Source: Sphingomonadales bacterium (GTDB taxonomy: Bacteria > Pseudomonadota > Alphaproteobacteria > Sphingomonadales > Sphingomonadaceae). Taken from it: a DNA stretch of 64,000 bases. A program made the position numbers and the translations under genes. Below, in pieces: positions 37,869 through 62,125 of the stretch. Numbering within the stretch: the first letter of the stretch is position 1; each line of letters starts with the position of its first letter. The stretch lies in NCBI GenBank assembly GCA_040004295.1, contig JBDUBD010000001.1:128-64127 (forward strand). The letters are read 5' to 3'. The notes below the pieces were generated by a model. The model was given only the letters and a program-made list of their open reading frames with translations. It had not been told where the DNA came from and ran no database searches.

Positions 37869-38716
37869 CCACAGACCCCTATTCGATGATCGAAGAACGC
37901 CGCCCGCGCCCGTTGCGCAACGCGCTCGTGATCGCGCTTGTCGCCTTTGTGCTGGGCGTGGCGCTCGTCACCTGGGCGTTCACCCGCTGGGAACCCGCGC
38001 GCCGGATGATTCTGCCTGCTGCGACGACCCAGGCAACGACAGTGCAGGGTGTCGTTGCGCAGCCGATGACCACCACGCCATTGCCAATCGCCACGGCGGG
38101 TGACGTGTCGAGCGAAGTGGCGATCACGGAATCGCGCGTTGCGGGGCTGGAGGCGCGCCTTGCACAGATCGACACACGCGCCGATGCCGCATCGGCCAAT
38201 GCCGCGCGGGCAGAGGGATTGCTCATCGCCTTTGCTGCGCGCCGTGCGGTCGAGCGCGGAGGTTCGCTGGGCTATCTCGAAGTACAACTTCGCACACGTT
38301 TTGCCGATACCCAGCCACGCGCCGTTGCCGCGATTATCACTGCCACCCAGTCCCCCGTGACGCTCAATGGTTTGCGCCAGCAACTCGACCGCCTCGAGCC
38401 GCAGCTGGTCGGTGATCCCGCTGGCGAACGTTGGGACGCCGCAATTACCCGCGCGATCGGCAGCCTGTTCGTCGTCCGCAAGGCCGACGCACCATCGCCC
38501 GCCGCCGACCAGCGCTTCGAACGCGCGCGGGTCTCGCTCGACGGCGGACAGGTTGATGCGGCGCTGACCGAAGTCGCCCGTCTTCCCGGTCGTGCTGCCG
38601 CAACCGACTGGATGGCCGCCGCGCGCCGCTACATCGAGGCGCAGCGCGCGCTCGACATTCTCGAAGCCGCCGCACTGACGGCGGCCCCCTTAACGATAGC
38701 AGGACCAGTTCAATGA
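37865..38716 (+). CDS. Inner-membrane coiled-coil protein (HemX/mitofilin-like)
   Basis: Single N-terminal TM, helical Ala-rich body, AATDWMAAARRY C-terminal motif; after hemCD. Confidence 0.65.
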   Translation: MTTDPYSMIEERRPRPLRNALVIALVAFVLGVALVTWAFTRWEPARRMILPAATTQATTVQGVVAQPMTTTPLPIATAGDVSSEVAITESRVAGLEARLAQIDTRADAASANAARAEGLLIAFAARRAVERGGSLGYLEVQLRTRFADTQPRAVAAIITATQSPVTLNGLRQQLDRLEPQLVGDPAGERWDAAITRAIGSLFVVRKADAPSPAADQRFERARVSLDGGQVDAALTEVARLPGRAAATDWMAAARRYIEAQRALDILEAAALTAAPLTIAGPVQ

Positions 38717-39420
38717 CGATCGAAGCCGAATGGTGGGACTATGACGACGCCGACGAAATGGCAGAGGCCGTTGCGGGCGACGTCGGTTTCATCATCGATT
38801 CCGCGCTCGACGCGCGGGGCAGCGCGCTGGTCGCGCTGCCCGGGGGAAAGACGCCGCGGGCCGCGCTGGCATTGCTCGCCGCGCAGAAGCGCAAGTGGAA
38901 GGACGTTACGATCATTCCGACCGACGACCGCATCGTCGAGGTGACGAGCGACCTGTCGAACGTCGCGGTGCTAGCGAAACAGTTTCTGCCGCTCGGCGCG
39001 CGCGTGGTGCCGCTGACAGGCGCGACTGCCGCCGATTACAAGATGAGCGGCAAGGCCGCCGATGCGCGGTTGCAGGATCTGCCGTGGCCGCTCGATCTGG
39101 TGTGGCTGGGCATGGGTGCTGATGGCCATACCGCGTCGATCTTTGCCGGACCCGACCTCGACGAGGCGCTGAATGGCCCAAAGGAACGCCGTGCACTGGG
39201 CGTCATGCCCGACCCGCTGCCCGCCGACGCGCCGGTTGCACGCGTTACTTTGTCGAAGGCGGCGATCCTGTCGGCACGGTCGCTCACGATCGCGCTGACC
39301 GGACAGGACAAGCGCGATGTGCTCGAACGCGCGATCGAGGATGGTGCGCTGTCGTCGGTGCCGATCGGGCGGGTGCTTGCGGACAGCGACCTGGCCGTGG
39401 ATATTCACTGGGCGGCTTAG
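38713..39420 (+). CDS. pgl: 6-phosphogluconolactonase
   Basis: ALPGGKTP, PTDDRIV, LGMGADGHTASIF. Confidence 0.93.
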   Translation: MTIEAEWWDYDDADEMAEAVAGDVGFIIDSALDARGSALVALPGGKTPRAALALLAAQKRKWKDVTIIPTDDRIVEVTSDLSNVAVLAKQFLPLGARVVPLTGATAADYKMSGKAADARLQDLPWPLDLVWLGMGADGHTASIFAGPDLDEALNGPKERRALGVMPDPLPADAPVARVTLSKAAILSARSLTIALTGQDKRDVLERAIEDGALSSVPIGRVLADSDLAVDIHWAA

Positions 39421-39505: not shown

Positions 39506-40048
39506 TCAGGCCGACTCTTTGTGCAGCCAGTCCGCGTGGTGCGGCGCCTTCTTCGTCGCGTTCCACTCGTCGAGCATCAGCGGCGCGACGCGCTCCAGTT
39601 CGGCGTACTGGTCCGCCGTGCCGATGTTGCACGCAAGCTCCAGCCGGTGGCCGTTTGGATCGAAGAAATAGATCGACCGGAAGATGCCGTGGTACGTCGG
39701 CCCCAGAACCTCGATGCCCTGTGCCTCGATATGCGCCTTGGCCGCTTTCAGCGTGTCGAAGTCGGGCACTTCGAACGCCAGATGCTGGACCCATTCCGGC
39801 GTCTTTTCGTCGCGGCCCATGTCGGGCTGGTTGGGCAATTCAAAGAACGCGACGACATTGTCGCCTCCGCAATCGAGGAAGACGTGCATGTACGGGTCAT
39901 AGGCGCCGGTTGAGGGCACATAGTCTTCCGCAAACGCGTTCGTGTAGCGAAAGCCCAGCACACGCTGATACCAGTCCACCGTCTCCTTCGCGTCGCGGCA
40001 GCGGTAGGCGACGTGATGGATACGTTGCGTGGTGAACGGAACGGTCAT
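39506..40048 (-). CDS. VOC-family protein linked to hppD
   Basis: IHHVAYRC, QHLAF, YFFDPNGHRLEL; overlaps the hppD stop. Confidence 0.88.
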   Translation of the reverse strand: MTVPFTTQRIHHVAYRCRDAKETVDWYQRVLGFRYTNAFAEDYVPSTGAYDPYMHVFLDCGGDNVVAFFELPNQPDMGRDEKTPEWVQHLAFEVPDFDTLKAAKAHIEAQGIEVLGPTYHGIFRSIYFFDPNGHRLELACNIGTADQYAELERVAPLMLDEWNATKKAPHHADWLHKESA

Positions 40049-41112
40049 GCTTCTGCCTTCGCTGGAATGACCCCGCGGCGCATCTGGTCGAGTTCAAGGC
40101 TTTCGAACAATGCCTTGAAATTGCCCTCTCCGAAGCCGTCGTTGCCCTTGCGCTGGATGATCTCGAAGAAGATCGGACCGACCATATTCTCGGTGAAGAT
40201 CTGCAGCAGCAGCCCGCCCCCGGTCTCGGGCGCGCCATCTATTAGGACGCGGCGCTTGCGCATCTCCTCGACGTCGTGGCCATGGCCCGGAAGCCGCTTG
40301 TCGATCAGGTCGAAATAGGAATCATTGGTGTCCTGGAACCGGATGCCGTTCGCCCGCAGCGCATCGACTGTCTTGAAGATGTTGTCGGTTGCCAGCGCGA
40401 TGTGCTGGATACCCTCGCCCTTATATTCGCGCAGGAATTCCTCGATCTGCGAATGCTCGTCCTGGCTTTCGTTCAGCGGGATGCGGATCTTGTCGTCGGG
40501 CGCGGTCATCGCCTTCGAAAACAGACCGGTCGATTGCCCCTCGATGTCGAAATAGCGGATCTCGCGGAAGTTGAAGACGCGCTCGTAGAATCCGGCCCAG
40601 TGCGCCATGCGCCCGCGGTTCACGTTGTGGGTCAAGTGATCGAGCGTGTGCAGTCCGACGCTCTTGTCGTCCGCGACCGCGCCATCGACGGGCTCGAAGT
40701 CGATGTCGTAGATCGTTGCGGCACCGCGGCGGTCGACGAGGTACAGGTTTGATCCGCCGATCCCTTCGATAGCAGGGATATTGAGTTCCGCCGGGCCGAC
40801 GCGGCCCTCGACCGGCGCCGCGCCGCGCTCGACCGCGAGGTTCAACGCCTTTGCGGCGTCGGCAACGCGGAAAGCCATCGCATTCGCTGACGGCCCATGC
40901 GCGTCGCGAAAATCGGATACCTGGCCGACCGGCTCCATGTTCAGAATGAAATTGATGTCGCCCTGCCGATAATGACGAACGTTCTTCGACCGGTGGTTGC
41001 CGAGATGGGTGAAGCCCATCGCGCGGAACAGGTTTGCCAGCGCCTCCGGATCGGGACCGGTAAATTCGACAAATTCGAAGCCGTCGAGACCGATGGGGTT
41101 TTCTAAGGGCAT
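40045..41112 (-). CDS. hppD: 4-hydroxyphenylpyruvate dioxygenase
   Basis: GFEFVEF, DHLTHNV, GIQHIAL, LLQIFT, FFEIIQRKG..GFGEGNF. Confidence 0.97.
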   Translation of the reverse strand: MPLENPIGLDGFEFVEFTGPDPEALANLFRAMGFTHLGNHRSKNVRHYRQGDINFILNMEPVGQVSDFRDAHGPSANAMAFRVADAAKALNLAVERGAAPVEGRVGPAELNIPAIEGIGGSNLYLVDRRGAATIYDIDFEPVDGAVADDKSVGLHTLDHLTHNVNRGRMAHWAGFYERVFNFREIRYFDIEGQSTGLFSKAMTAPDDKIRIPLNESQDEHSQIEEFLREYKGEGIQHIALATDNIFKTVDALRANGIRFQDTNDSYFDLIDKRLPGHGHDVEEMRKRRVLIDGAPETGGGLLLQIFTENMVGPIFFEIIQRKGNDGFGEGNFKALFESLELDQMRRGVIPAKAEA

Positions 41113-41170
41113 GCGTTTTCTCCAGCGGATGAGGCGATTCTCTTGCGGCTAAAATGCTCTCTTGTGGAAA

Positions 41171-41188
41171 TGGTGTCAAATGATACTA
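41171..41188. promoter_or_regulatory. Candidate MarR operator in the hppD/MarR divergent spacer
   Basis: Imperfect palindrome TGGTGTCAAATGATACTA (12 of 18 positions self-complementary). Confidence 0.45.
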
Positions 41189-41197
41189 AATCGTGCC

Positions 41198-41641
41198 ATG
41201 CTCAAGCTCGACGATTTCCTGCCCTATCGCCTGTCGGTTGCCAGCAACCGCGTGAGCGAGACGATCGCGCGCGCTTACCGGGAAGCGTTCGGCCTGAGTA
41301 TCGCGGAATGGCGAACGCTAGCGGTCGCCGCCGAAAACGGGGGGCTGACCCAGCAGGAAGTCGGTCAACGCACTTGCATGGACAAGGTGACCGTCAGTCG
41401 GGCTGCGATCGCACTGACGCGGCGTGGGCTGATCGCGCGGACGCACGGTCCAAGTGACAGGCGCGAACGCGTGCTGGAGCTAACGGCGCAGGGCCAGAAT
41501 CTTTATGCCAAAGTGGTTCCGCGCGCGCGCGCTTTGGAGAAGCAAATCTTTGGCGAATTCAGCCCGGAGGAGCTTGCCCGACTCTTAGAAACGCTTCTTC
41601 GGATTGAAAGAGCATCGATCGACACAGCATGGCCAGAATGA
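41198..41641 (+). CDS. MarR-family regulator (likely controls hppD)
   Basis: LDDFLPYRLS, LSIAEWRTL, MDKVTVSRA, DRR..LELT; divergent from hppD. Confidence 0.9.
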   Translation: MLKLDDFLPYRLSVASNRVSETIARAYREAFGLSIAEWRTLAVAAENGGLTQQEVGQRTCMDKVTVSRAAIALTRRGLIARTHGPSDRRERVLELTAQGQNLYAKVVPRARALEKQIFGEFSPEELARLLETLLRIERASIDTAWPE

Positions 41642-41767: not shown

Positions 41768-43474
41768 ATGGCTCAAACAGGAGATCGAATTCTTGCTCGT
41801 TCCGGCGTGAGGGCTGAGAAGGATGACGCGACTTTCCGGGGTTCAACGCTCCTTGAGGAAAAAGTCGATAGCATTCTCGCCAGCCCCGCCTTTCTCCGCG
41901 CGCCCATCCTGTCGCGCTTGTTGCGCTATCTTCTCGACCAGACCCTTGCCGGAGAAGCCGACAGTCTGAAGGCCTACACGGTCGCCGTCGAAGGGCTGGA
42001 CCGCCCAGTCGATTTCGACGCGCAGTTCGACAGCTATCCACGGGTCCAGATGGTGCGCCTGCGCAAGGCGCTCGAAACCTATTATGCCGATGACCCGTCG
42101 CAGCCCGACCCCTGTGTCTATCTTTGTGTACGGTCGTACCGTCTTCAACTGGTCGCGCGCGAAACGGTATATTCCAATACGCCGCGCATATCCCGTGTCG
42201 ACTTTCCTGCGATCCAGAGCCTCGTGACGCCGCCCGGTGCCGTCGGTGGCCGCCTGAAGAGGCGACGCACGCTGATGGTCCTTGGCATCATGCTTGCCGG
42301 GTTGTTCAGCTTCATCGTGTTCCAGGTTTACAACGGGAAGGCAACGACGCGAAATACCGTTGGCATGCCGGTCGTCGAAATCGGCTTCCGGAACGCGGCG
42401 TCAGCCCAACACGGCGACGAAGTGACAGAAATTCTGTCCGGGGCATTGACCCGGTCATGGGTTGCTCAGGTGCGCGATCGATCCATTGGCACAAGTGCCA
42501 TGGCGCAACTCCCCACCTATCGCATCATGCTGAATGAAAGCGACCGAGGGGTGGACGCCCAGCTCGTCGACGCCCGTTCGGACATGATCATATGGACCGA
42601 CTCGGTGGCCATAGACCCCAATGGCGCCTTGCGCGAAGAGCTGGCACCGATGATTGCCGAACTCGTCGGTCCCTATGGTGTTATCGCCCGCACCGAGGCG
42701 AACCAGCTCAAACCCCAATCGACCGGAAGCTTCGCGTGTATTTTGCGCTATTTTGCATTTGTGAAATCACGCGACGCTGCTGAGCGGGCGCGTGTCGCGG
42801 CGTGTCTCGAACAGCCGGTGGACGAGCCACGGCTCACCGCAACGGTTGACGCGGTTCGCTCCTTTTTCGCTTTGGAAGCGACTGCCTTGCCCGACCGCGA
42901 GAGGCAGATGGCTGTCGCAGAACAGTTCGCAAGACTGGCAACCGTTGCCGATGCCAAAGATCCCTATACCTATTATGCGAATGCGCGCCTCGCCTATCTT
43001 CGCTCCAATTGCGCGGCGGGCCTGTTCAATGCGGATCGGGCGGTAGCGGCCAATCCCTATGATGCGATGATCGTTACGGTTCTGTCCGGTCTCACGACAC
43101 CATGCTCGCGTCCCAAGGCGGCGGCGATGCTCGATCAGGCTTACCGCATTCGTAACGACAACGACGTTGCGATGCGAAGTTCACTGATTTTCGCGACCAT
43201 TGCGCAGGGCCAGGAAAAGCGCCTGGCCGAGCTCGGTTTCCTGCTCCGGCCGCCCCCGGGGCCACTATTGCCCGGTTATCTTCTGGCCGAATCGCTGACT
43301 GCTGCGTCACAAGGACGCAGCGTCGAAGCTGCAGCACTTTGGAGGGAGCTCAGGTCGCTTCGTTCTTCTCCGGGCGCTTCTGATGACGATATGCTGAAAA
43401 GGATCATCCTTTCGGATGCACTGCGGCAACAGGTGCTGGATTTGCTTCGCACACGCGGGGCGATCACGTCATAG
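41768..43474 (+). CDS. Single-pass membrane protein with an N-terminal wHTH-like domain and a periplasmic TolB-like/TPR region
   Basis: ILASPAF..LSRLLRYL..LKAYTVAVE...RVQMVRLRKALETYY cytoplasmic domain, one TM (LMVLGIMLAGLFSFIVF), C-terminal TPR-like helices. Confidence 0.7.
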   Translation: MAQTGDRILARSGVRAEKDDATFRGSTLLEEKVDSILASPAFLRAPILSRLLRYLLDQTLAGEADSLKAYTVAVEGLDRPVDFDAQFDSYPRVQMVRLRKALETYYADDPSQPDPCVYLCVRSYRLQLVARETVYSNTPRISRVDFPAIQSLVTPPGAVGGRLKRRRTLMVLGIMLAGLFSFIVFQVYNGKATTRNTVGMPVVEIGFRNAASAQHGDEVTEILSGALTRSWVAQVRDRSIGTSAMAQLPTYRIMLNESDRGVDAQLVDARSDMIIWTDSVAIDPNGALREELAPMIAELVGPYGVIARTEANQLKPQSTGSFACILRYFAFVKSRDAAERARVAACLEQPVDEPRLTATVDAVRSFFALEATALPDRERQMAVAEQFARLATVADAKDPYTYYANARLAYLRSNCAAGLFNADRAVAANPYDAMIVTVLSGLTTPCSRPKAAAMLDQAYRIRNDNDVAMRSSLIFATIAQGQEKRLAELGFLLRPPPGPLLPGYLLAESLTAASQGRSVEAAALWRELRSLRSSPGASDDDMLKRIILSDALRQQVLDLLRTRGAITS

Positions 43475-43596
43475 ATTGCGGAGCACAGAGCGCACGATCT
43501 GTGAAGCGTCACAAACGATATCGAGGGAGTGCGTCGCGGCAAAGCCGCTCTGTCGATCTTTGCCCGTGGCAAGGTCGGTCGAGCGCGTCTGGTGTT

Positions 43597-43617
43597 CAAA
43601 ATAGCGCCGCTATTTTG
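43597..43617 (-). terminator. Intrinsic terminator-like hairpin downstream of the tRNA 3' fragment
   Basis: Perfect inverted repeat CAAAATAGCG-C-CGCTATTTTG, 13 nt past the CCA end on the minus strand. Confidence 0.65.
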
Positions 43618-43630
43618 CGCCCAAACGCAC

Positions 43631-43650
43631 TGGAGCGGGCGAAGGGAATC
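43631..43650 (-). repeat. att site: duplicated 3' end of tRNA-Gly (GATTCCCTTCGCCCGCTCCA)
   Basis: The reverse complement is half a T-arm, an acceptor strand pairing with 5' GCGGGCG, discriminator U and CCA. The match stops abruptly, so this is not a full tRNA. Confidence 0.8.
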
Positions 43651-43850
43651 ATTCGCTGCAGTCGTTTCTAAAAGTTCAGGTCTGACACATTCGCCGCCTC
43701 TGCGCGCGCGCGGCGATTGGTTGTGCAGCGACAATGGGTGATGTCTGGCCACCTCGACTGATAGGGGAGCACAGTGCACAAATCGCGGGTCGCTTCGAAG
43801 TCGGGTTGATGGTCTGATTCAGTCTCTGCGAGAAAGCAGAGGGTGAACCG

Positions 43851-43991
43851 ATGATGGGCGAGCGGACGGTGGCGCAGGAGGCGCTATTCTACAGCTTCAA
43901 ACTGGAGCGGCATGTGCCGAGCGATCCTCGGCTGCGCTCGATCGCTCGGTTTGTGGACCTGTCGGATATTCCCAAAAGGATGGTGTTTTAG
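43851..43991 (+). pseudogene. IS1182-family transposase 5' remnant
   Basis: MMGERTVAQEALFYSFKLERHVPSDPRLRSIARFVDLSDI, then unrelated sequence and a stop after 46 aa. Confidence 0.75.
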
Positions 43992-44498: not shown

Positions 44499-45310
44499 TC
44501 GCTCTTCCCCCTGAAAAGTGGTCCATGTTGGAAGTGAGGGTTTCGGCTATTTTACGCTTTGGAAGGAGCGAGGAATGGCACGGAAGGTTTATACAGCGGA
44601 GCAGATCATCGGGATGTTGCGGGAGGCGGAGGTACGGCTGTCGCGGGTGAGAAGGTGGGTGCGATCTGCCGCGTGTTGAGTGTGTCTGAGCAGAGTTATT
44701 ACCGGTGGCGTCGTGAGTATGGCGGGTTGAAGGTGACGCAGGCGGCGCGATTGAAGACGCTGGAGAAGGAGAATGCGCGGCTCAGGAAGGCGGTATCGAA
44801 CCTGACGCTGGATGCTTTGATTCTGAAAGAGGTGATCGAGGGAAGGTTCTAAGCCCCTCGCGACGCCGTGCTGGGGTCGATCATGCGTGTGCGGCGCTCG
44901 GTGTGTCCGAGCGTCGTGCGTGCCGGGTTGTGGGCCAGCACCGTTCGACCCAGCGCAAGCCTTACCGGCCACGATCCGATGAGAAGCGCTTGACGGCGGA
45001 CATCATCCGGTTGGCGTCGGCCTATGGCCGGTATGGCTATCGCCGGGTGACCGCGCTGTTGCAGGGTGAGGGTTGGACGGTGAACGCCAAGCGGGTTGAG
45101 CGTATCTGGCGTCGCGAGGGGCTGAAGGTGCCGCAGAAGCAGCCCAAACGTGGCCGTCTCTGGCTGAATGATGGATCGTGCGTGCGGCTGCGGCCGCAGC
45201 ATCGCGGTCATGTCTGGAGCTACGACTTCGTCGCGGATCGCACGCATGACGGCAAGGCGTTCCGGATGTTGACGGTGATCGACGAGCATAGCCGGGAGTG
45301 CCTGGCGATC
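44499..45310 (+). mobile_element. Truncated IS3-family element (IS407-group-like)
   Basis: IRL-like CTCTTCCCCCTGAAAAGTGGTCCA. orfA from ATG 44575 has a 1-nt frameshift near 44643. orfB (RYGYRR, HVWSYDFV, LTVIDEHSRECLAI) is cut at about 45310; no IRR. Confidence 0.88.
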
Positions 45311-45413
45311 GCATCCGCAATTCCAAAACTTGCATAAAGCGACGTGCGTGGGACGGCCTCGGGGTCATGGATATAGCGCAGCCGGAACGCCAGATCGCGC
45401 GCAGGCGCCCGTA

Positions 45414-45666
45414 GAAAACAGCATTTGCCTGAACCGGAAATATCGCTTTCACCCCGGGAAGGTTAGCCACCTCGGTCGCTCGTTTCTTTGCGCAGGCATT
45501 GCTGTGCCGTGCATCGGCCAGCCACACTCCGCTCTATAGCAGTCCCACCCAAGAGGCAGAAAAAAAAGCGCATCTTCGATGCCAGCTGTCCGGCCTGCTT
45601 GCAGCGATACACAAAGTCCTCCGACAGCACCGTATCGAAGAATATTATCGCGTCGCCGACGAATTC
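45414..45666 (-). pseudogene. Low-specificity L-threonine aldolase (LtaE-like) internal remnant
   Basis: GDAIIFFD..EDFVYRCKQAGQLASKMRF, then +1 frameshift in a T8 run, SASWVGLL, stop, ..ARHSNACA..LPGVKAIFPVQANAVF. Confidence 0.8.
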
Positions 45667-45820
45667 CAACAGAGGCCGTGGCACCGAGCGGCGGTGGTTA
45701 CGTTGCCCGGCAACGGTTACGCAACCGCAATTGGCTTCGCAATCCGAATGGGCGCAGCCATTCTCGATCCCGCAAAGGTTCAACGACGTTGTTGCTCCGA
45801 AGTCAGTTAGGGAACCCGTC

Positions 45821-46423
45821 ATGGATCAGCTCAAGAAGTCTTCTTTGCGGAAGCTCGATCGACTATTTCCAGCTGCCACCCTGGCAGTTTTGGTTGTGGC
45901 GATGAGCGGATGTGGCCCCAAAAGCAGCTCGACGTCAGACGCGCGCGACACGGCGCAAACGCCTTACAAATCGGTTGCGAGCGTCAAGGAGCTTATGGAC
46001 TCGACGGTTGATCCAGCGGCGGACGGCGTTTGGGATGCAGTGGGCATTATCTCCAACGCCTCTGGGGTCACCAAACATGAGCCGCGCACCGACGAGGAGT
46101 GGCACGCGGTCCGCCGTCACGCGATGACCCTGATTGAATCGATGAATCTGGTGATGATGCCGGGCCGCCTTGCTGCACCACACGGAACGAAGGCCGGACT
46201 TGGCGAGCTTAGCCCGCAGCAGATTGACGCTGCGATCAAGGAAAACCGACCGGAATTCGATCAGTATGCCGGCGCGGTACGCGACTCAGCCGCCGAGGCG
46301 TTAAAAGCCATTGACCAAAAGGATACGGCTGCACTGACCCGGATCGGCGGCGACATCGATCAGCGCTGCGAAGCTTGCCACACCGTCTTTTGGTATCCGA
46401 ACTCCGCGAGTCCAGCCAAGTAG
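45821..46423 (+). CDS. Lipoprotein class II cytochrome c (c'/c556-like)
   Basis: Lipobox AMSGC, helical body, single C-terminal CEACH heme motif; start ATG 45821. Confidence 0.8.
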   Translation: MDQLKKSSLRKLDRLFPAATLAVLVVAMSGCGPKSSSTSDARDTAQTPYKSVASVKELMDSTVDPAADGVWDAVGIISNASGVTKHEPRTDEEWHAVRRHAMTLIESMNLVMMPGRLAAPHGTKAGLGELSPQQIDAAIKENRPEFDQYAGAVRDSAAEALKAIDQKDTAALTRIGGDIDQRCEACHTVFWYPNSASPAK

Positions 46424-46481
46424 TAGCCAGCCCGGCAGCGGATGTCTGGACCTGATCATCCCCAATGGTGCCGGGCTTGTC

Positions 46482-47051
46482 CTATTTGGATGCCGATCGC
46501 GACGCATCGTCGATGATGTAGCGCCAGCCACCGTCGGCCTGCTTGCGCATCACTTCGATACCACCGCCCGTCAGCTCCTGTTTGGCGCCTTCGGCACTGA
46601 CGAAATTCATCCGCCAGTGGTTGGTCGTTAACGCGACATCATTGTAAAGGACGTGCCGACGATTGCCGAGAACGATCTGTGGCTTGATGCTCAGCAACCC
46701 TTTGAGGTCTTCGTGGACCTTGGATTTGCCGATCAACGTGACTCCGTCGGGATTAACGTAGGTGACATCATCGACGTAGAGATCGACCAATCCCTCAAGG
46801 TCGCCGGTGTTGAAGCGTTCCTGCCAGGCGTCGTACAGCTTGTCGATGTCCGTTACGGGAGGGATGCGTCGCGCCGTCGCCGCGGTTGCTGCCCTTGGGG
46901 TGACGGCGATCCCGGCGGCAACGGCCCCGGCTGCCATGACTTTCAGAAAGCTCGCGCGTGTGATTTCCACCGTTGCTGAAGTGGATTGATCAAGCTGTGA
47001 CCGCTCACCTTGGTCAGCGTTTTCCCAGGCCTTGCGAATGGATTGGATCAC
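46482..47051 (-). CDS. SnoaL/DUF4440 (NTF2-fold) protein with a Tat-like leader
   Basis: WQERFNTGDLEGLVDLY and EVMRKQADGGWRYIID NTF2 pattern; leader TRASFLKVMAAGAVAAG. GTG start at 47051 follows GGAGG. Confidence 0.8.
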   Translation of the reverse strand: MIQSIRKAWENADQGERSQLDQSTSATVEITRASFLKVMAAGAVAAGIAVTPRAATAATARRIPPVTDIDKLYDAWQERFNTGDLEGLVDLYVDDVTYVNPDGVTLIGKSKVHEDLKGLLSIKPQIVLGNRRHVLYNDVALTTNHWRMNFVSAEGAKQELTGGGIEVMRKQADGGWRYIIDDASRSASK

Positions 47052-47214
47052 AGTTCGTACCTCCAACGATCATGTGCGACGGGCGAAGTCAGGGCTCGTC
47101 AGCCGTTAAATAGTCGCTAAGCTAGCAGGCTTGAACTGCATCCGCCGATCCCATCTTCGGCCGATTTTACGACCGTTTCGGCCTGCAGCGGGGCGCATGC
47201 CGTCGCATTTTTCA

Positions 47215-47248
47215 CGTCGCCCCTGAACCCGAGAGTGCAGGGGCGACG
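47215..47248. other. Strong hairpin directly after the TBDR gene (terminator or mRNA stabiliser)
   Basis: CGTCGCCCCTG-N12-CAGGGGCGACG perfect 11-bp stem. Confidence 0.55.
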
Positions 47249-47258
47249 AAAGGCATAT

Positions 47259-49679
47259 TTAGCGGGTGCCGAAGGGAACCCGCAGCGTCGCACCATAGGT
47301 CGTGGGCGGTGCATAGATCGAGGTCACACCGAGAATGCCAAGATTGAGGGCATAGGCACGGTACGCCTTGTCGAAAACATTGCGCCCCCACACGGTCAGC
47401 GAGATGCCCGATGGCGTGTCGCGATAGGTGAGCGACGCGTTGGTGACGTTATAGGCTTTTTGCAGCGACCCCAGGCCGTTGGTTACTTCCAGGAATTGAT
47501 CGTCGTACCAGACGCCATCCACCTGCGCGGCCACATTTCCGTGCCCAACGTCAACATTGTAGCGCAGCAGATAGTTGAAGCTGAAGCGCGGAGCATTGGG
47601 CAACTCGACGCCCGTGATCGTCTTTTGCGGGAAGTCGCAGCGGAACACACCGCCCAGATTGGTGCAATACTGGGTGTTGGCAGCGCCGGGGACCAATTCC
47701 GGGCCAAACTGGACGTCGGTTGCCGGAATGCTGTCGACCGACGAGGTTTGCCATGTTGCCCCGAACACCGCATCGAAGCGCCGTGATGGCGACCAGAACG
47801 CTTCCAGTTCGGCACCGGTCGAATGGGCGTTGCTGTTGAAGACGTGGGGTACGCCGCCAGCCAGCGAGAAGGCCTGATAATCTTCATACGCGTAATGGTA
47901 CACAGTGCCGTTGAGGCGCAGCGTGCGATCCAGCAATGTCGTCTTGAACCCGGCCTCGAAACTGTTCAGCGTTTCGGGACGATGCTGGAAGTCGGCGGCG
48001 GCAATGTTCGACGACAGCGACCAATTGCCACCCTTGATGCCGCGATTCCACGATGCGAAGAGCAATGTTTGCGCGCTCGCCTGGAAATTGAGAGACACGC
48101 GTGCCGCCCAGTCGCCATAGGATATCTGGTTCGACCCCGGCACCACTGCAGCCAGATCCTTGTCGGTGAAAAGGACCTTGGGATTGGGCTGCGGTGCATA
48201 AGTGGGGTCGCTCAGGACATTGACGTAGTCGATAGACTTGTTGTCCTTGGAATAGCGGGCTCCCAGCGTCAGCGACAGCCGGTCGGTCAGCTTGATGTCG
48301 CCTTGTGCAAAGACCGACCAGTTCTTGGACGGAATTTTGTAGAACTGGGAAACCTGCGGCACCGAAAAGCCGCCGTTACCGGAAAGGGCCAAGTCGTAAA
48401 TCGGCGCGCCGGTCACGGCATGATCGCCATCGTATTTCATATCGAGGTAATAGGCCCCGATTTGCCACTTCAGGCGACTGGTGTCGCCGGACAGGCGCAG
48501 CTCTTGAGAAAACTGGTGAAATTTGAGCGTCGTATCGACATTGACGATCAGAAATGGGATCGCGTCGCCGTCTTCGGCATAAACCTTGTCCAGTGTAAGA
48601 TAATTGGTGATCGCGGTCAGGTTCGCACCGCCAAGCTTCCAGTTCAGTTCGGCCTGGTAACTGTTCGCCACCCGGTTCAGAGAGCCCTTGCGCTCGCCGA
48701 AATGGACCCATGGGGATGCCGGAAGGCCGGTCACTCCGTTGATCACACCATTCTGGGCGTCGCTCAGCCCGGCGGCATTGGTGTCGCAATAGCCATTGGG
48801 CAGGAAATTGCAGTTCTCGAAAACATAGCCACCAGTGGCAAGGTCGTTGTCTTCGGAATGCTTGTACCACAGGCTCACGGTCGCATCGGGTGACAGGTCG
48901 ATCTGTAAATTGACGCGAGCGGCCCAGCCATTCTTGCCGCCGAGATCCTGACCACTGCCGGGCAGGACGCCAAGACCGAGCGCGGTGGCATCTGTATCGC
49001 GCGACTTAATATAACCGTCGGCTTTCTCGAAACGGGTGGCCGCGCGTATGCGGACGCCCGGTGCCAGTTGTCCACCGACTGCACCCTCCAACGACCAGTC
49101 ATTGAAGCGACCGTAGTCGCCCTGGACATAGCCATTGAATTCGACCTTGCTGGCGTCCTCGCTGAGGTAATGGATCAGACCGCCGGTGGCGTTACGACCG
49201 AATAGCGTACCTTGAGGGCCGCGCAGGACTTCGACGCGCTTGATGTCGAACAACTGGCCCGACACGGCATTCATCGAGGCGATATAAGCATTGTCCTGAT
49301 ATACCGCGACCGGCGCTTCGAGATTGTCGGTGAAGTTGTTCTGCGAAATGCCGCGCAGGCTGAAGATCGTCAGGTTCGGTGACCAGGCATTGACCCGCAA
49401 GGCAGGGATTTGCTGAGTAATCTGCGTGGTATCGGTGATGCCCAGCCGATCGATCTGCTCGCCGGAAAAAGCGCTCATCGAAATCGGAACCTTCTGCAGG
49501 CTCTCGCTGCGCTTGTTGGCAGTGACCACGATTTCAGTGACCATGTTGCCGTCCGCTGACCCGCTTGCACCCGCATCGGCAGATGTAGTGCCCTGCGCCA
49601 CTGCCAGTGTTGGGAACGCCAGATACGAGCAGGCAAGCATGAGCGAGAGGCGTGATGTGGCGCGGAAGGTAAGATGCAT
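47259..49679 (-). CDS. TonB-dependent receptor
   Basis: Signal peptide, TonB box EIVVTA, EVLRGPQGTLFGRNATGG plug, NVFDKAY near the C-terminus; start ATG 49679. Confidence 0.95.
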   Translation of the reverse strand: MHLTFRATSRLSLMLACSYLAFPTLAVAQGTTSADAGASGSADGNMVTEIVVTANKRSESLQKVPISMSAFSGEQIDRLGITDTTQITQQIPALRVNAWSPNLTIFSLRGISQNNFTDNLEAPVAVYQDNAYIASMNAVSGQLFDIKRVEVLRGPQGTLFGRNATGGLIHYLSEDASKVEFNGYVQGDYGRFNDWSLEGAVGGQLAPGVRIRAATRFEKADGYIKSRDTDATALGLGVLPGSGQDLGGKNGWAARVNLQIDLSPDATVSLWYKHSEDNDLATGGYVFENCNFLPNGYCDTNAAGLSDAQNGVINGVTGLPASPWVHFGERKGSLNRVANSYQAELNWKLGGANLTAITNYLTLDKVYAEDGDAIPFLIVNVDTTLKFHQFSQELRLSGDTSRLKWQIGAYYLDMKYDGDHAVTGAPIYDLALSGNGGFSVPQVSQFYKIPSKNWSVFAQGDIKLTDRLSLTLGARYSKDNKSIDYVNVLSDPTYAPQPNPKVLFTDKDLAAVVPGSNQISYGDWAARVSLNFQASAQTLLFASWNRGIKGGNWSLSSNIAAADFQHRPETLNSFEAGFKTTLLDRTLRLNGTVYHYAYEDYQAFSLAGGVPHVFNSNAHSTGAELEAFWSPSRRFDAVFGATWQTSSVDSIPATDVQFGPELVPGAANTQYCTNLGGVFRCDFPQKTITGVELPNAPRFSFNYLLRYNVDVGHGNVAAQVDGVWYDDQFLEVTNGLGSLQKAYNVTNASLTYRDTPSGISLTVWGRNVFDKAYRAYALNLGILGVTSIYAPPTTYGATLRVPFGTR

Positions 49680-50049
49680 GCGTTTAGACTCCCTGTAGCG
49701 GTTCGGTTCTTTCGCTCGCTCTGTGGACGGCCCAAGGCGAAGCGTTCGACGGAGGTATTTCACAATTGACAGTAATAGGCAATATCGCTTCATTGTTGCA
49801 TGAATGAAACAGTAAAAGAGCGGGGATAATGGTGCTCTTCTTTTCCATCGTGGGTTCAAAATATTTTATTAAATAATTGATTTTAAATCACAAAATATCA
49901 GTCTCAATTTTCTTTGAGGTTCCTTAATGGGAACAATCCGAACAAAATTGCCGACATTGTCAATAAAAATATGTCATGATAGAAGTTGCAAAATCACGTC
50001 GCCGCTCAATGGCGATTCGGCGACCAAAGGGCCAACGAGGAGAGCAAAC
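49680..50049. promoter_or_regulatory. AT-rich divergent promoter region (TBDR / monooxygenase)
   Basis: Very AT-rich 49850-49980; palindromes TTCAT-N6-ATGAA (49789-49804) and GTTCC-N6-GGAAC. Confidence 0.55.
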
Positions 50050-51276
50050 ATGTTGCATGTGGCTGTATCGAACGACGGGAACGATCGCGCGAGCCGTGAT
50101 GGTGCTCCACCTAACGTCGCCACATTGGTCGCCCGCGCACAAGCGATGATCCCTGTCCTGCGGGAGCGCGAAGACGGAGCGATCCGCAGCCGCCAGGTGC
50201 CGATCGAAACAATAGTCGATTTTCAGCAAGCAGGCTTTTTCAAGATCCTGCAGCCGCGGCGCTTCGGCGGCTACGAAATGTCTCCAGCGGTCTATTGTGA
50301 GGTGGCCAAGACGTTGGCCGAGGGCTGCATGGGCAGCGCCTGGGTCTATGGTGTCGTTGCCGTCCACAACTGGCAAATGGCCCTGTTCGATCCGCAAGCT
50401 GCCGAAGATGTTTGGGGCGATGATCCTTCGGTATTGATCAGTTCTTCCTACATGCCGACCGGCAAAGCAGTCAAAGTCGATGGCGGCTATCGTTTTAGCG
50501 GCCGATGGGCGTTTTCCAGCGGATCCGAACACTGCCAATGGGTGATCCTGGGTGCCAACATGATTGCCGACGACGGCGACGGGCAGCCAGAGCCTTACAA
50601 CTTCCTGGTGCCTCGCAGTGACTATGCGATCTTGGATACCTGGCACACCATGGGACTGTGCCCCACCGGCAGCAATGACATCGTGGTGGACGATGTTTTC
50701 GTGCCGTCGTATCGCGTGATACGCGAGCGTGACATGTTCAATCTGGCGTGCCCAGGTCATGCTCTGAACACCGGCGAACTCTATCGCATTCCTTTTGCGC
50801 AACTGTTCAACCGGACGGTTTCGACGACGTCACTGGGTTCGCTCCGTCGTGCACTGGACACGTTCGTGGAATCAACCCGGCAAAAGCGGGCCACCTACAC
50901 CGGACTGCGGCTTGCAGGGGACACGACGATCCAGGAAGCCGTCGCCGATGTCATGTTGACGCTGCACGACCTCGAACTGCGCTTCGCCGCCGACCTGGCC
51001 GAACTGGACAGCCGCGCGGCAAGCGGCGATTGGCCGATCGAACGGCGTGCTGTGCTCGGGTACCACACCACTGCCGTTGTCTCTCGTTGCGTCGAGGCGA
51101 TCGACAAGCTGATGCTGTTTTCCGGCGGCAAGGCCATTTACCTTGGCAACGTCGTTCAGCGAGCGTTCCTTGATATCCACTGCGCACGCGGACACGTTGC
51201 CAACAATCCTTATCCCTATGCGCGTAACGTGGGCGGACTGGCCTTCGGGTTCGAAAACAACTGCATGGATCTTTGA
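50050..51276 (+). CDS. Group D flavin-dependent monooxygenase, oxygenase component (ACAD fold, HsaA-like)
   Basis: FFKILQPRRFGG, VHNWQMALF, ISSSYMP, GRWAFSSG..HC, TGSND, RAFLDIH. Confidence 0.88.
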   Translation: MLHVAVSNDGNDRASRDGAPPNVATLVARAQAMIPVLREREDGAIRSRQVPIETIVDFQQAGFFKILQPRRFGGYEMSPAVYCEVAKTLAEGCMGSAWVYGVVAVHNWQMALFDPQAAEDVWGDDPSVLISSSYMPTGKAVKVDGGYRFSGRWAFSSGSEHCQWVILGANMIADDGDGQPEPYNFLVPRSDYAILDTWHTMGLCPTGSNDIVVDDVFVPSYRVIRERDMFNLACPGHALNTGELYRIPFAQLFNRTVSTTSLGSLRRALDTFVESTRQKRATYTGLRLAGDTTIQEAVADVMLTLHDLELRFAADLAELDSRAASGDWPIERRAVLGYHTTAVVSRCVEAIDKLMLFSGGKAIYLGNVVQRAFLDIHCARGHVANNPYPYARNVGGLAFGFENNCMDL

Positions 51277-51348
51277 TCGTCACGGCCGCTTGCGCCGTTG
51301 ACCGGCAAGGTCGTTGGACGGCCTTGAGGTGAATATCCGTAACGCGGG

Positions 51349-52293
51349 CTAGATGGCGGCTGCCAGCGCCTGTGATACGCCGTGCACAACTTCGGGCTTG
51401 GCGGCCATTTCGTTGCGAACGAAGTCCACGAAAGCCCGGACTTTCGACAAGGCAAAATTACCACGCGGGAAAATGATGTGCAGCGAAATACTTTCGCTGA
51501 CCACGTCATCAAGCAGGGATTCGAGCCGGTTGGCTGCAATATCTTCCTCGACCAGAAACCGGGGCAGGTAGCTGACCCCGAGCCCTTCGAGTGTGGCCTG
51601 CCGCGCCATCCGCACCGAGTTGCTGGTCAGCGGGCCTCGGTTCACCGCGACCGTGACATCGTCGGACAGGCGCCATTCGCCAACCTTCGACAGATGTGTT
51701 TCGACGATGCAGGTATGTTCTTTGAGGTCATTGGGTGTCGACGGCCAGCCAGCACGTCCGAGATAGTCCGGCGCGGCGACCAGCACCATGGGATAGGTAC
51801 GCAGTTGCACCGATTCCAGGCTGGCGTCGAACGGATCACCCATCCAGAAGGCCACGTCGAAGCGGCCCTTGAGCATGTCGACCTTGCTGTCCGAAAGATT
51901 AAGGAACATCCGTATATCGGGATAGGTCTTGAGGAACCGCGGAATGATCGCGGTAAGATCGAACAACGAAGACACGACGGGCGCATTCACCTTGAGTTCG
52001 CCGCGCGGTTTTGAAACCATCCCGGTGATAATCTGGTTTGCCTCGTTCACCTCATCGACGATGCGAGCGCAGCGTGCGTACATTTCGCGTCCGGCTGGCG
52101 TGAGCGAAACCGATCGCGTCGTCCGATCCAGCAGGCGCACCCCTATATTCTGTTCCAGCTTGGCGATCTGCCGGCTGACTGCAGCTTTTGAATAGCCGAG
52201 CACCTTGGCGGCATTCGAAAAGCCTCCGCTGCTGACGACGGCGGCGAATGACATCATCGCCATGACATTGCCCAAATCTGGTCGGTCTTCCAT
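51349..52293 (-). CDS. LysR-family regulator (CrgA/DmlR-like)
   Basis: FSNAAKVLGYSKAAVSRQIAKLE HTH, LLDRTTRSVSLT, KVRAFVDF. Confidence 0.93.
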   Translation of the reverse strand: MEDRPDLGNVMAMMSFAAVVSSGGFSNAAKVLGYSKAAVSRQIAKLEQNIGVRLLDRTTRSVSLTPAGREMYARCARIVDEVNEANQIITGMVSKPRGELKVNAPVVSSLFDLTAIIPRFLKTYPDIRMFLNLSDSKVDMLKGRFDVAFWMGDPFDASLESVQLRTYPMVLVAAPDYLGRAGWPSTPNDLKEHTCIVETHLSKVGEWRLSDDVTVAVNRGPLTSNSVRMARQATLEGLGVSYLPRFLVEEDIAANRLESLLDDVVSESISLHIIFPRGNFALSKVRAFVDFVRNEMAAKPEVVHGVSQALAAAI

Positions 52294-52422
52294 CCTCTGC
52301 TCTGTGTTTCAGGCGTTGGAGCGAGTCAATCCGGATGAGTTCTCTCACCCCCGTGAATGCCCCGTTTCAATGACGAATTATTGTTACGTCAATGCAAAAA
52401 TACGTAGATAATGATTTAGACT

Positions 52423-52439
52423 GTTGCGTTTGAGGTAAC
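52423..52439. promoter_or_regulatory. Candidate LysR box
   Basis: GTTGC-N7-GTAAC imperfect palindrome in the LysR/aminotransferase divergent spacer. Confidence 0.4.
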
Positions 52440-52505
52440 TTTGCGCAAGGACTTTGACGGTAATTTCAGGGCCGCTCTTCGAGCAGCGGCATGACCGGGA
52501 GAAAT

Positions 52506-53864
52506 ATGATGTCGAGCCAGCTTGCCCAGAAAGACGCGCGCAGCCAGTTCCACTCGTTCACGTCGCTCAACGACATGAAGGCGGACGGTCCCACTGTCAT
52601 GGCATCGGGGTCCGGGGTGCGTGTCCGCGATGTGAATGGCAAGGAATACATCGATGGGATGGCGGGCCTGTGGTGCGTCAACCTTGGTTATGGTCGTCAG
52701 GAAATTTCGGACGCGATCGCCCGGCAGAGCGAACGGCTGGCGTTCTTCCATACTTTCAACGGTATGAGCACCGATGTGGTGGCGGAATGCGCAGAAGCGT
52801 TGCTTGCCCGCGCACCCGTGCCGATGTCGCGGGTGTTTTTCGGCGTATCGGGAAGCGATGCCAATGAAACCCAGCTCAAGCTGATCTGGCTCTACAATAA
52901 CCTGCGCGGGATGCCGACCAAGAAGAAGGTGATCGCTCGCTGGAACGCCTACCATGGATCGGGCGTGGCCACGGCCAGCCTGACCGGATTGCCGGGCATG
53001 CATAACCTCTTCGACCTTCCCCAGGGTCCGATCCTGCATGTCAGCGCCCCGCACTATTATCGCAATGCGCCGGACGGCATGTCGGAGCGGGATTTCTCGC
53101 GCAAGCTTGCGAAGGAGCTGGAAGACCTGATCGAGCGCGAAGGCGGTGACACGATCGCTGCCTTTTTCGCCGAGGCTGTGATGGGGGCCGGTGGTCTGAT
53201 CCCGCCGCCAGAAGGCTATTTCGACGAGATCATGCCTATCCTCAAGAAGCACGACATTCTCCTCGTTGCAGACGAAGTCGTATCGGGGTTCGGTCGTCTC
53301 GGCACATATTGGGGATGCCAGAGCTATGGCTATCAGCCCGATCTCATCACGTCGGCCAAGGGCGTGACTTCGGGCTATTTCCCGATGTCGGCGGTTTTTA
53401 TTTCGCCCAAGGTTTGGGATGTGATCGAAAACGGTGCCGACAAGCTCGGCGTTTTTGGCCATGGTTACACCTATTCCGGCCATCCGGTCGGCGCGGCGGC
53501 TGCGCTTGTTGCGCTGAAGCTGATCGACGAGCTCAAGGTCGTCGAGAACGTTGCCGATGTGGGGCCGTACATGATGCAGGCACTGCGTGATCGGCTGGGA
53601 CAGCATCCGCATGTCGGCGACATCCGTGGCAAGGGCCTGATGCTGGGCATCGAGCTGATGAAGGATCGCGAGACCAAGGAGATTTTCCCGATGGCCAATC
53701 GCACCGGTCGCCAGGTGCTGAAGGCGGCGGCCGAACGGGGCCTGATCACGCGTGCGCTGGGCGATACGCTGGTCTTTGCGCCACCGCTTGTCATTACGCG
53801 TGCCGACGCAGACGAGATCGTGGACAAGTTTGCAGGGGCTGTGGACGACGTGTTCAAAGCCTGA
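52506..53864 (+). CDS. Class III PLP aminotransferase (omega-amine:pyruvate type)
   Basis: YIDGMAGLWCVNLGYG, SGSDANET, AYHG, ADEVVSGFGRLG, SAKG catalytic Lys; start ATG 52506 or 52491. Confidence 0.93.
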   Translation: MMSSQLAQKDARSQFHSFTSLNDMKADGPTVMASGSGVRVRDVNGKEYIDGMAGLWCVNLGYGRQEISDAIARQSERLAFFHTFNGMSTDVVAECAEALLARAPVPMSRVFFGVSGSDANETQLKLIWLYNNLRGMPTKKKVIARWNAYHGSGVATASLTGLPGMHNLFDLPQGPILHVSAPHYYRNAPDGMSERDFSRKLAKELEDLIEREGGDTIAAFFAEAVMGAGGLIPPPEGYFDEIMPILKKHDILLVADEVVSGFGRLGTYWGCQSYGYQPDLITSAKGVTSGYFPMSAVFISPKVWDVIENGADKLGVFGHGYTYSGHPVGAAAALVALKLIDELKVVENVADVGPYMMQALRDRLGQHPHVGDIRGKGLMLGIELMKDRETKEIFPMANRTGRQVLKAAAERGLITRALGDTLVFAPPLVITRADADEIVDKFAGAVDDVFKA

Positions 53865-53929
53865 ACCATATGTCAGCCCCTTCAGGATCAGCGTTGGTCC
53901 GATGTTACAACCCTTGGGAGGGGTGAACG

Positions 53930-55111
53930 ATGGAACTGAATACCGCCATTGCCGGATTAGCGGCTGCGGAAGCAGGGACCGAGCGGCTCACACGCGGGGG
54001 GCTGATCAGCGCAATTCTCGTCGGCCTGGTTGGCGCGATGGTGATCTTTATCACACCCGGCTTTCTGGCAGTCATTGCCCAGAAGACCGGGTTCGATAAC
54101 GACCAGCTCGGCTATCTGGCCGCGTGGGATATCAACGCGATGGGCGTGACGGTGGGTATCAGCACTTTCTTGCTTGCCCGCGTGCCCTGGCGACGGGCAG
54201 TAGGTCTGGGCCTGATATTGATTGTCATCGGCAATCTGCTGACGGCGGCGGTCGATAGCTTCGCTGCCATGTCTGCGGCGCGTGTGATCGCGGGGGCCGG
54301 TGAGGGCATATCGATCGGTTTCGCATTTGCGGCGCTGGGACGGGCACCCAGTCCCGATCGCGCCTTTTCGATCTATCTGGTCGTCGGCGCGCTTTTGAGT
54401 TCGGCCTTCCTCTATTCGCTACCTGCGATCCAGGCGAACTTTGCCCCATCAACGGTCTTCATTTGTTTCGCAGTTTTTGCCGTGCTGGTGATGACTTCGC
54501 TTCGTGCTTTTCCGGACGGTAGCAAGGACGAACCCGACATTTTCGCCTCGGGAGGCAGGCTCGATATGCGCTTTTCCTCCGGGGCATTGCTCGGCGTGTT
54601 CCTGTTGTTCTTTGCCATGGGCGCGATGTGGAGCTATTCCGAACGCATCGGGCTGGCCAGCGGGCTATCGACGGGGACGATTGCGACGGGGCTTTCGATC
54701 GGCACCATGGCCGGGGTCGTTGGTGCAGGACTGGCCGGAATACTGCCGCGCCGTTGGGGTCGGTCCTGGCCGCTGGTGATCAGCGGCATTTCAGGTGTTG
54801 CGAGCTTCCTGATGTTTCGAGGTCAGGTCGCGTCGAACTCCTTCATTATCGCGATCGTCCTGCTGATGTTCAGCTGGAACTTCGCCCAGCCGTTGCTCTC
54901 GGGGATTTGCGCGGAAGCGTGCAAGCGCGGTCGGATTGTTTGTGCGATGGGGTCGATTCAGACCTTTGGAACTGGCCTGGGACCGGCAGCAGCTGCGGCG
55001 ACGCTGGGTACTGGATCGTTTCTGGTCGCGATCTATGCCTCCAGCCTGATACTCGCCCTGAGCATCGCGGTAACAATCGCGACGATCACCCGCGGACAGC
55101 GTTTGGCTTGA
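53930..55111 (+). CDS. MFS transporter
   Basis: About 12 hydrophobic helices, ARVPWRR loop, ARVIAGAGEG. Confidence 0.85.
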   Translation: MELNTAIAGLAAAEAGTERLTRGGLISAILVGLVGAMVIFITPGFLAVIAQKTGFDNDQLGYLAAWDINAMGVTVGISTFLLARVPWRRAVGLGLILIVIGNLLTAAVDSFAAMSAARVIAGAGEGISIGFAFAALGRAPSPDRAFSIYLVVGALLSSAFLYSLPAIQANFAPSTVFICFAVFAVLVMTSLRAFPDGSKDEPDIFASGGRLDMRFSSGALLGVFLLFFAMGAMWSYSERIGLASGLSTGTIATGLSIGTMAGVVGAGLAGILPRRWGRSWPLVISGISGVASFLMFRGQVASNSFIIAIVLLMFSWNFAQPLLSGICAEACKRGRIVCAMGSIQTFGTGLGPAAAAATLGTGSFLVAIYASSLILALSIAVTIATITRGQRLA

Positions 55112-55172
55112 ACGCGTTACAGCAAGATTTGGCAGGGCCGGGCCGGGGGGCGCGGCTCATCTGCCAAAGGCT

Positions 55173-55628
55173 TTAAGTGAGGCGCTTGGAATAACCGTCG
55201 AGCGTGGTGTTTCGCGACCAACCGCGCGTTTCATAGAGTTGCTGTGCCCTGTGGTTGGTCCGAGCTGTCTGCAGATTGATCCGGACAGCACCCCTTTCAG
55301 CAGCAAATGCTTCGGCCCGGTTCAGCAATACGGCACCGATGCCGCTGCCACGAATGGCGGGGAGTACAAACAGATCGTTCAATATGCAGATCGATCCTGC
55401 GAACACCGAACAGAAGCTGAAATAGATCTGGCAGAAGCCGACGATTCCGCCATCGGCGTCTTCGGCTACGAAGATTGCGGACTGACCCTTTTCCATTCGC
55501 TCCTGGATGAAATGCAACGCCAGCGGTTCGTCGGGCGCCATGTCGTAGAATTGCCGGTACAGATCGAATAAGCTCGCCACGGCCGGCACATCGGCGAGAG
55601 TTGCCTGGCGGATTTTAAAGGCATTCAT
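55173..55628 (-). CDS. GNAT N-acetyltransferase (SSAT-like)
   Basis: IRQATLAD, ILNDLFV, RGSGIG acetyl-CoA motif; start ATG 55628. Confidence 0.88.
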   Translation of the reverse strand: MNAFKIRQATLADVPAVASLFDLYRQFYDMAPDEPLALHFIQERMEKGQSAIFVAEDADGGIVGFCQIYFSFCSVFAGSICILNDLFVLPAIRGSGIGAVLLNRAEAFAAERGAVRINLQTARTNHRAQQLYETRGWSRNTTLDGYSKRLT

Positions 55629-55679
55629 CAAAAATGTCTCCTGATCTGCGGCCCCGCCGCGAGGCGGCGGGCGCATCGA

Positions 55680-56483: not shown

Positions 56484-56497
56484 TGTCTTTTCTCCTT

Positions 56498-58955: not shown

Positions 58956-58993
58956 GGAACAGCCCGACACAAACCCTTCAAGCAGGAGCGAAC

Positions 58994-61184: not shown

Positions 61185-61187
61185 ACG

Positions 61188-62111: not shown

Positions 62112-62125
62112 CAGGATGACGATCA

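Follow-up and report, generated by a model that had tools for sequence, protein, structure and literature searches.

A probable integrative-element scar of the tRNA-Gly(GCC) 3' end at the edge of accessory DNA in a sphingomonad genome

In symbiosis islands of the ICEMlSym R7A type and in P4-like islands, as at the locus described here, a duplication of tRNA 3'-end sequence on the scale of 17 nt bounds a large accessory island. Unlike the present locus, these islands use another tRNA (Phe), keep their integrase beside the tRNA end and are mobile. IntB13, the integrase of ICEclc, is a long P4-type integrase. The ICEclc family targets the 3' end of tRNA-Gly, and its members can enter tRNA-Gly genes of either the CCC or the GCC anticodon (PMC9960961). 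ICEclc-type elements of Pseudomonas knackmussii B13 and its relatives share with the locus studied here the tRNA-Gly 3'-end target, the short direct repeat and a cargo of catabolic genes, which in that family act on aromatic compounds or amines. They differ from it in that the present host is an alphaproteobacterium and in the integrase: elements related to this locus encode an enzyme of 431-467 aa, and this genome encodes none.

The DNA analysed here (the window) is a stretch of 64,000 nucleotides, positions 128-64127 of the 64,361-bp contig C82, of which only about 230 bp remain to the right of the window; that contig end falls inside an SDR-like gene. The contig belongs to a 2.65-Mb assembly (G000) of 153 contigs that is 97.4% complete, and database matches indicated Sphingomonadaceae. 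The window starts with hemE, hemJ, rho, terC, mnmE and parA at 0.5-10 kb, followed by a likely parB ORF. With this alphaproteobacterial gene set, the origin-proximal location proposed in a previous reading made from the letters of the window (hereafter the sequence-only reading), about 43 kb from oriC, is plausible. A single perfect DnaA box (TTATCCACA) at 414-422, upstream of hemE, fits a nearby origin.

As set out below, positions 43631-43647 of the window are probably the leftover of an integrative element in the 3' end of tRNA-Gly(GCC), forming a decayed island junction that bounds accessory DNA.

The tRNA-like piece and its native flank

The following features define the junction and the DNA to its left.

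38713..39420, plus strand: 6-phosphogluconolactonase gene (pgl; Pfam PF01182), a core gene that serves as synteny anchor on the native side
39506..41641, no strand assigned: block of glyoxalase, 4-hydroxyphenylpyruvate dioxygenase (HPPD) and MarR genes (Pfam), which separates pgl from the 568-aa gene in this genome only
41768..43474, plus strand: 568-aa gene without a Pfam family, native neighbour converging on the tRNA site (synteny of its homologue)
43522..43630, minus strand: structured dispersed repeat of about 108 nt (REP-like), starting directly after the CCA, native flank (B') of the tRNA site
43597..43617, no strand assigned: perfect 9-bp hairpin with a 3-nt loop, C-AAAATAGC-GCC-GCTATTTT-G, inner stem of the repeat
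43631..43647, minus strand: 17-nt core TCCCTTCGCCCGCTCCA, an attR-type scar and direct repeat of the tRNA-Gly(GCC) 3' end, identical to C50:1527-1543
43648..43650, minus strand: GAT, the remaining three bases of the 20-mer, matching the T-loop of Gly(CCC/UCC) but only 2/3 in Gly(GCC)

The 20-mer TGGAGCGGGCGAAGGGAATC at 43631-43650 (plus strand) is unique, both in the window and in the whole 2.65-Mb assembly; with up to three mismatches allowed, chance would give 0.03 matches. Its minus-strand reading, GATTCCCTTCGCCCGCTCCA, matched the 3' end of the tRNA-Gly(GCC) gene on contig C50 (c[1527-1601]) at 19 of 20 positions, the last 17 nt exactly. Matches to tRNA-Gly(CCC) on C31 and to tRNA-Gly(UCC), the 3' part of which lies at the very start of C115, were likewise 19/20, each with an internal G/A mismatch. 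Identical copies of the 17-nt core were present at C50:1527-1543 and in the window and nowhere else in the assembly. Since ARAGORN detected no tRNA in the window and Rfam no match in 43300-44000, the 20-mer is a fragment and not a gene. These results upheld the earlier recognition of a tRNA 3'-end piece with a perfect hairpin beyond its CCA.

Other matches of 12-14 nt to the tRNA end, on C123, C14 and C135, lay inside coding sequence and were rejected as chance. An imperfect 21-nt direct repeat (81% identity; 43474-43494 and 43760-43780) brackets flank, scar and arm and may be chance.

DNA of pgl was found at 69-79% identity in almost all congeners. In congeners, pgl and the single tRNA-Gly(GCC) gene are arranged tail-to-tail, with the intact tRNA 0.1-1.3 kb away. 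Distances between the two genes, derived from coordinates, were:

G001: 320 bp
G003: 1058 bp
G004: about 1.3 kb
G006: 92 bp
G009: 1108 bp
G012: 918 bp

The best comparator was G023, in which a single contig carries pgl, a 605-aa homologue of the 568-aa gene (47% identical), a structured flank, the intact tRNA-Gly(GCC) on the opposite strand and a divergent thioredoxin-TPR gene. A 183-aa remnant of the 568-aa gene occupies the same place in G012, and in G003 pgl, tRNA and thioredoxin gene all lie inside 1.3 kb. An empty site, at which pgl and/or the 568-aa homologue converge on an intact tRNA-Gly(GCC), was observed in at least seven congeners (G023, G003, G001, G009, G012, G004, and G006). Contiguity across the site in relatives without the right-hand DNA had been set beforehand as a test of the sequence-only reading, and these seven genomes showed it. 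In the genome studied here the gene order of G023 is split: its first half stops at the window scar, and its second half, consisting of the tRNA and the thioredoxin-TPR gene, is on C50.

The flank to the left of the scar aligned in register with the sequence that follows tRNA-Gly(GCC) in G003, G011, G009, G001, G004, G006, and G023. Because this flank is a dispersed repeat, the orthology of the site rests on gene synteny and not on flank similarity alone. The 17/17 identity and the in-register flank support the earlier proposal, in which an att-type duplication of a tRNA-Gly 3' end lies on the native downstream flank; the anticodon, previously given as probably CCC, is GCC by synteny.

The sequence that follows tRNA-Gly(GCC) in G008, G015, and G005 was neither the repeat flank nor the element arm described below (first ~275 nt only), and in G008 and G015 pgl lies on another contig. 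From these sequences, the tRNA-Gly(GCC) site may be an integration hot spot that apparently holds other inserts in these three genomes.

Within the native side, DNA of the glyoxalase and HPPD genes corresponded to unlinked loci in relatives, and GC content was 59.5% in 39.5-43.65 kb as compared to 64.3% upstream (1-39.5 kb) and 62.3% for the whole genome. The glyoxalase/HPPD/MarR block looks like a second, older rearrangement. A different short repeat (~30-70 nt), with dozens of matches at 84-100% identity in this and related genomes, is located between pgl and the glyoxalase gene (39433-39502).

A dispersed repeat beyond the CCA

The hairpin at 43597-43617, with nine perfect pairs, begins 13 nt past the CCA. 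Its previous interpretation as the original terminator of the tRNA had to be abandoned: no intrinsic-terminator pattern was called on the minus (tRNA) strand, the stem being A/T-rich with its T run inside the stem, and the hairpin is part of the dispersed structured repeat. This repeat folds into three stems, with compensatory changes at 17 of the 27 predicted pairs among 11 sequences; the window copy gave -50.2 kcal/mol (z = -3.15). In eight congeners, a covariance model (R1) built from 13 copies matched 11-48 copies per genome; it matched 13 in the genome studied here. Some copies form tandem or inverted pairs. Copies in G000 included C115:53-159, C86:19916-20018, and C67:10027-10131, with others on C56, C81, C96, C140, C72, and C104.

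Four of the about 13 copies in this genome begin immediately past tRNA 3' ends (the scar, Gly-UCC, Asn, and Leu-GAG). The remaining copies come after stop codons or terminator-like hairpins and lack a tRNA-like sequence at the 5' edge. In G011, two copies are located in the Ile-Ala rRNA spacer. A scan of 43300-44000 returned no Rfam family for the repeat, and a link with RAYT (PF01797) genes was not found.

Like REP and BIME sequences, the repeat is short, structured, multi-copy and intergenic, occurs just past gene ends and at times forms tandem or inverted pairs. Unlike them, it is longer (about 108 nt in three stems) and shows no link with RAYT genes, and four of about 13 copies abut tRNA 3' ends. 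We tentatively interpret the presumed terminator as a copy of an undescribed three-stem repeat family of the genus that lands after tRNA 3' ends (Gly-GCC, Gly-UCC, Asn, Leu, and Ile in the rRNA spacer), stop codons or terminators and has no RAYT partner. Such a family might consist of mobile miniature elements that favour gene ends, or might act as a common module in RNA 3' processing or termination; as the fixed B' flank it may add to the hot-spot context. Of all that was found here, only the repeat family is mildly new. A literature search yielded nothing specific on the dispersed repeat or on the sphingomonad tRNA-Gly element described below.

The intact tRNA, related elements and the right-hand DNA

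The only tRNA-Gly(GCC) of the genome, of which every congener likewise has one, is found on C50, a separate contig of 9.7 kb. The sequence-only reading had placed the intact tRNA, and likely the integrase as well, beyond position 64000, where C82 continues for only those last ~230 bp; the tRNA on C50 and the absence of a matching integrase anywhere in the assembly contradict both expectations. In the related family, moreover, the integrase adjoins the scar and not the intact tRNA, and in this genome IS debris occupies that place.

The thioredoxin-TPR gene at C50:3138-4049 is the orthologous neighbour of tRNA-Gly(GCC) (similarity of the upstream region was judged by eye). Where visible in congeners (G003, G015, G010, G009, and G008), this gene starts ~150-250 nt from the tRNA; on C50 a 484-aa membrane-protein ORF without a Pfam family (C50:1581-3035, minus strand) lies between the two.

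On its other side, the tRNA on C50 is followed by an element-type arm: the ~95 nt after the CCA are A+T-rich and homologous to the post-tRNA arm in G010 and G013, with which they have TGTGTAGG-type repeats in common. After this arm come a DpnII endonuclease fragment and, at the contig end, an IS5-family copy (C50:129-1194). A scaffolding attempt found no contig-end overlaps joining C82 to C50 or C115. We infer that C50 and C82 flank one continuous insert.

G010 and G013 contain members of a sphingomonad element family at the same site. In both genomes pgl is followed by the flank, the 17-nt scar TCCCTTCACCCGCTCCA, an arm of ~130 nt with CTGTGCAGAA and CTGTGTAGG repeats, and a divergent gene whose product starts with MKFITDKEQ. 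In the family, this product is a PF00589 tyrosine recombinase of 431-467 aa. Its first 173 residues were found at 64-91% identity in 10 of 151 family genomes (9 of 112 genera), and five of these 10 loci, plus G010 and G013, showed a 17-nt Gly-type scar ~130 nt from the integrase start. The boundary between arm and tRNA identity falls on the same nucleotide in the window as in the integrase-side scars of G010, G013, G172, G167, G047, G090, and G157. Beside the tRNA end in G013 lies the C-terminus of a TraA-like relaxase, named from sequence motifs, which points to a conjugative or mobilisable element.

Contigs C83 and C299 of G010 break at this locus and overlap perfectly by 94 nt; by this join, the element remnant between scar and tRNA in G010 is probably only ~2.8 kb long. 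The joined remnant (C299:1-2738 and C83:1-211) contains a truncated integrase of 173 aa along with a ParB-like fragment and an ORF resembling outer-membrane efflux proteins.

The genome studied here shares with this family the target gene, the 17-nt boundary and, on C50, the conserved ~95-nt arm directly after the intact tRNA. It differs by lacking the integrase, the TraA-like relaxase and the arm on the integrase side, in which the CTGTGCAGAA and CTGTGTAGG repeats lie; in addition, its core has G instead of A at position 8 and is preceded by one extra T. Searches of this genome by tblastn with the integrase N-terminus, the TraA-like C-terminus, a 162-aa ORF and the ParB-like fragment returned nothing. 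Only two PF00589 genes were present in the assembly, encoding a 302-aa recombinase on C85 and a protein beside tRNA-Leu on C135. At an assembly completeness of 97.4%, absence of the integrase from the genome is likely, though not certain.

The C135 gene (C135:2021-2506, minus strand; 442-aa open frame) encodes the only non-Xer-like tyrosine recombinase of the assembly and is located ~0.8 kb from tRNA-Leu(CAG) (c[3290-3376]). The pair may represent a further integrated element.

To the right of the scar, the window contains the following features.

43651..43790, no strand assigned: 140-nt arm on the element side, without recognisable relatives and giving only low-complexity matches in 151 family genomes
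43791..43969, plus strand: 5' fragment of an IS4/IS5-family element, its frame decaying after about 45 codons
44034..44495, minus strand: protein of 153 aa with a LytTR DNA-binding domain (Pfam PF04397)
44559..45337, plus strand: IS3-family remnant with orfA and a truncated orfB (HTH_Tnp_1, HTH_21 and partial rve domains)
45488..64000, no strand assigned: accessory catabolic cluster (Pfam), which runs off the contig

Alignments showed no homology between the 140-nt arm and the conserved integrase-side arm of the element family. The adjacent IS fragment shared 84.6% identity with the beginning of an IS4-family transposase gene carried by plasmid pSWIT01 of Rhizorhabdus wittichii, in a match that extended from 58 nt before the ATG. 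It begins 140 nt from the scar, where a divergent integrase of the family would start (~130-150 nt), and tblastn detected no integrase remnant. An exact search for the junction in metagenome contigs gave no match. Because both inner edges are eroded and no integrase was found, the island presumably lacks its own means of excision.

The cluster consists of genes for catabolism or transport. Its Pfam assignments comprised a cytochrome c'-like protein, SnoaL, a TonB receptor, an ACAD-like oxygenase, LysR, an aminotransferase, MFS and GNAT proteins, as well as SDR, ALDH, a BNR propeller, a glyoxalase-fold dioxygenase, AA_synth, a hydrolase and a TPP enzyme. DNA matches of 44.1-64 kb in 15 congeners were limited to the IS3 remnant (G005, 72-73%) and weak matches to ALDH paralogues; by contrast, 37000-39420 was found in nearly all congeners. 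GC content of the right-hand DNA was 59.8%, as compared to 64.3% for 1-39.5 kb. Because it has no DNA counterpart in the 15 congeners and a lower GC content, the DNA to the right of the scar (at least 20 kb) is accessory.

Protein relatives of the ACAD-like gene product, 76-85% identical, were scattered over Sphingomonas, Sphingosinicella, Sphingorhabdus, Novosphingobium, Aurantiacibacter, and Sphingobium. At 16 other sphingomonad loci with the catabolic cluster, neither a tRNA nor a Gly scar was found within 10 kb (0/16), and comparison of the cargo with known plasmids gave short pieces of 75-80% identity and IS matches only. Of the earlier claim that everything from 43650 rightwards is cargo, the accessory nature of the DNA was thus confirmed by the congeners and GC content, while delivery of the catabolic cluster by a tRNA-targeting integrative element is inferred from its position only.

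Origin and meaning of the junction

In the explanation that we favour, an integrative element would have recombined with the 3' end of the single tRNA-Gly(GCC) by site-specific recombination of the tyrosine-integrase type. Integration would have split the site into the intact tRNA with an element arm (attL), now on C50, and the 17-nt duplicate on the native flank (attR) at window positions 43631-43647. The DNA between attL and attR would be accessory and would comprise at least 20.7 kb on C82, 1.5 kb on C50 and an unassembled gap. Integrase and transfer genes would have been lost later, IS elements would have eroded both inner edges, and the island would now be fixed.

Several observations count against this explanation. 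Scar and intact tRNA are on different contigs without an end overlap, so that orientation and continuity are unproven. The 140-nt arm is unlike that of the family, the scar has the G for A and the extra T, and the assembly contains no family integrase, relaxase or other element protein. Finally, the flank is a dispersed repeat, and the 16 other cluster loci have no tRNA or Gly scar.

Some of these observations would be accommodated by two successive integrations, which would refine rather than contradict the favoured explanation. An older, unrelated element would have left the scar and perhaps brought the catabolic cluster, and the sphingomonad element would later have entered the reconstituted tRNA and left the ~95-nt arm on C50. 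The arm at 43651-43790 is unrelated to the otherwise conserved family arm, yet the arm on C50 is of that family; the scar deviates from family scars at core position 8 and by its extra T; and in G008, G015, and G005 the site seemingly holds different DNA, as far as the first ~275 nt past the tRNA show. However, no second scar was found inside and no integrase in the assembly, and it would take a coincidence for two unrelated integrases to have the same 17-nt boundary. Identity blocks of about 17 nt at the 3' end are common for tRNA-targeting integrases. We regard two integrations as a serious possibility that falls somewhat short of being probable. As an alternative to such tandem accretion, it is possible that one element, rearranged, gave rise to the odd arm and scar.

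It is unlikely that the piece is a tRNA gene truncated by an IS-mediated deletion or rearrangement, with the tRNA on C50 as a separate or relocated copy. IS fragments only 140 nt from the piece, the missing integrase and an arm without relatives are compatible with such an event. However, the piece is cut at exactly the nucleotide that forms the att boundary next to integrases in seven other genomes. Moreover, each congener has one tRNA-Gly(GCC), and the copy on C50 keeps its thioredoxin-TPR neighbour and carries an element arm downstream.

A partial segmental copy of another tRNA-Gly locus was suggested by tRNA-Gly(UCC) on C115, where GATTCCCTTCACCCGCTCCA matches the 20-mer at 19/20 positions, including the GAT, and is followed by a 76% identical repeat copy with the same AAAATAGCGGCGCTATTTT hairpin. 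Against this origin of piece and flank, synteny of pgl and the 568-aa gene places the site at the tRNA-Gly(GCC) locus, the core has the G of the GCC type, and the 3' half of the repeat looks closest to the tRNA-Gly(GCC) flank of G003 (alignment judged by eye); we consider a segmental copy very improbable. A chance match, or a 20-mer that is simply part of the dispersed repeat, can be dismissed in spite of the flanking repeat with its 13 copies in this genome, since the chance expectation is 0.03 matches and the scar is not part of the repeat, given that copies away from tRNAs lack a tRNA-like sequence at the 5' edge.

Under the favoured explanation of integration into the tRNA-Gly(GCC) gene, the junction is an ordinary, decayed genomic-island boundary and nothing unexpected for a sphingomonad genome. 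For annotation, it probably links C82 and C50 of a fragmented assembly, and its att core and arms offer query sequences for related elements. With no integrase found, the island is presumably immobile now. The junction fixes the left boundary of a horizontally acquired catabolic cluster and places the island in an apparent tRNA-Gly(GCC) hot spot of the genus.
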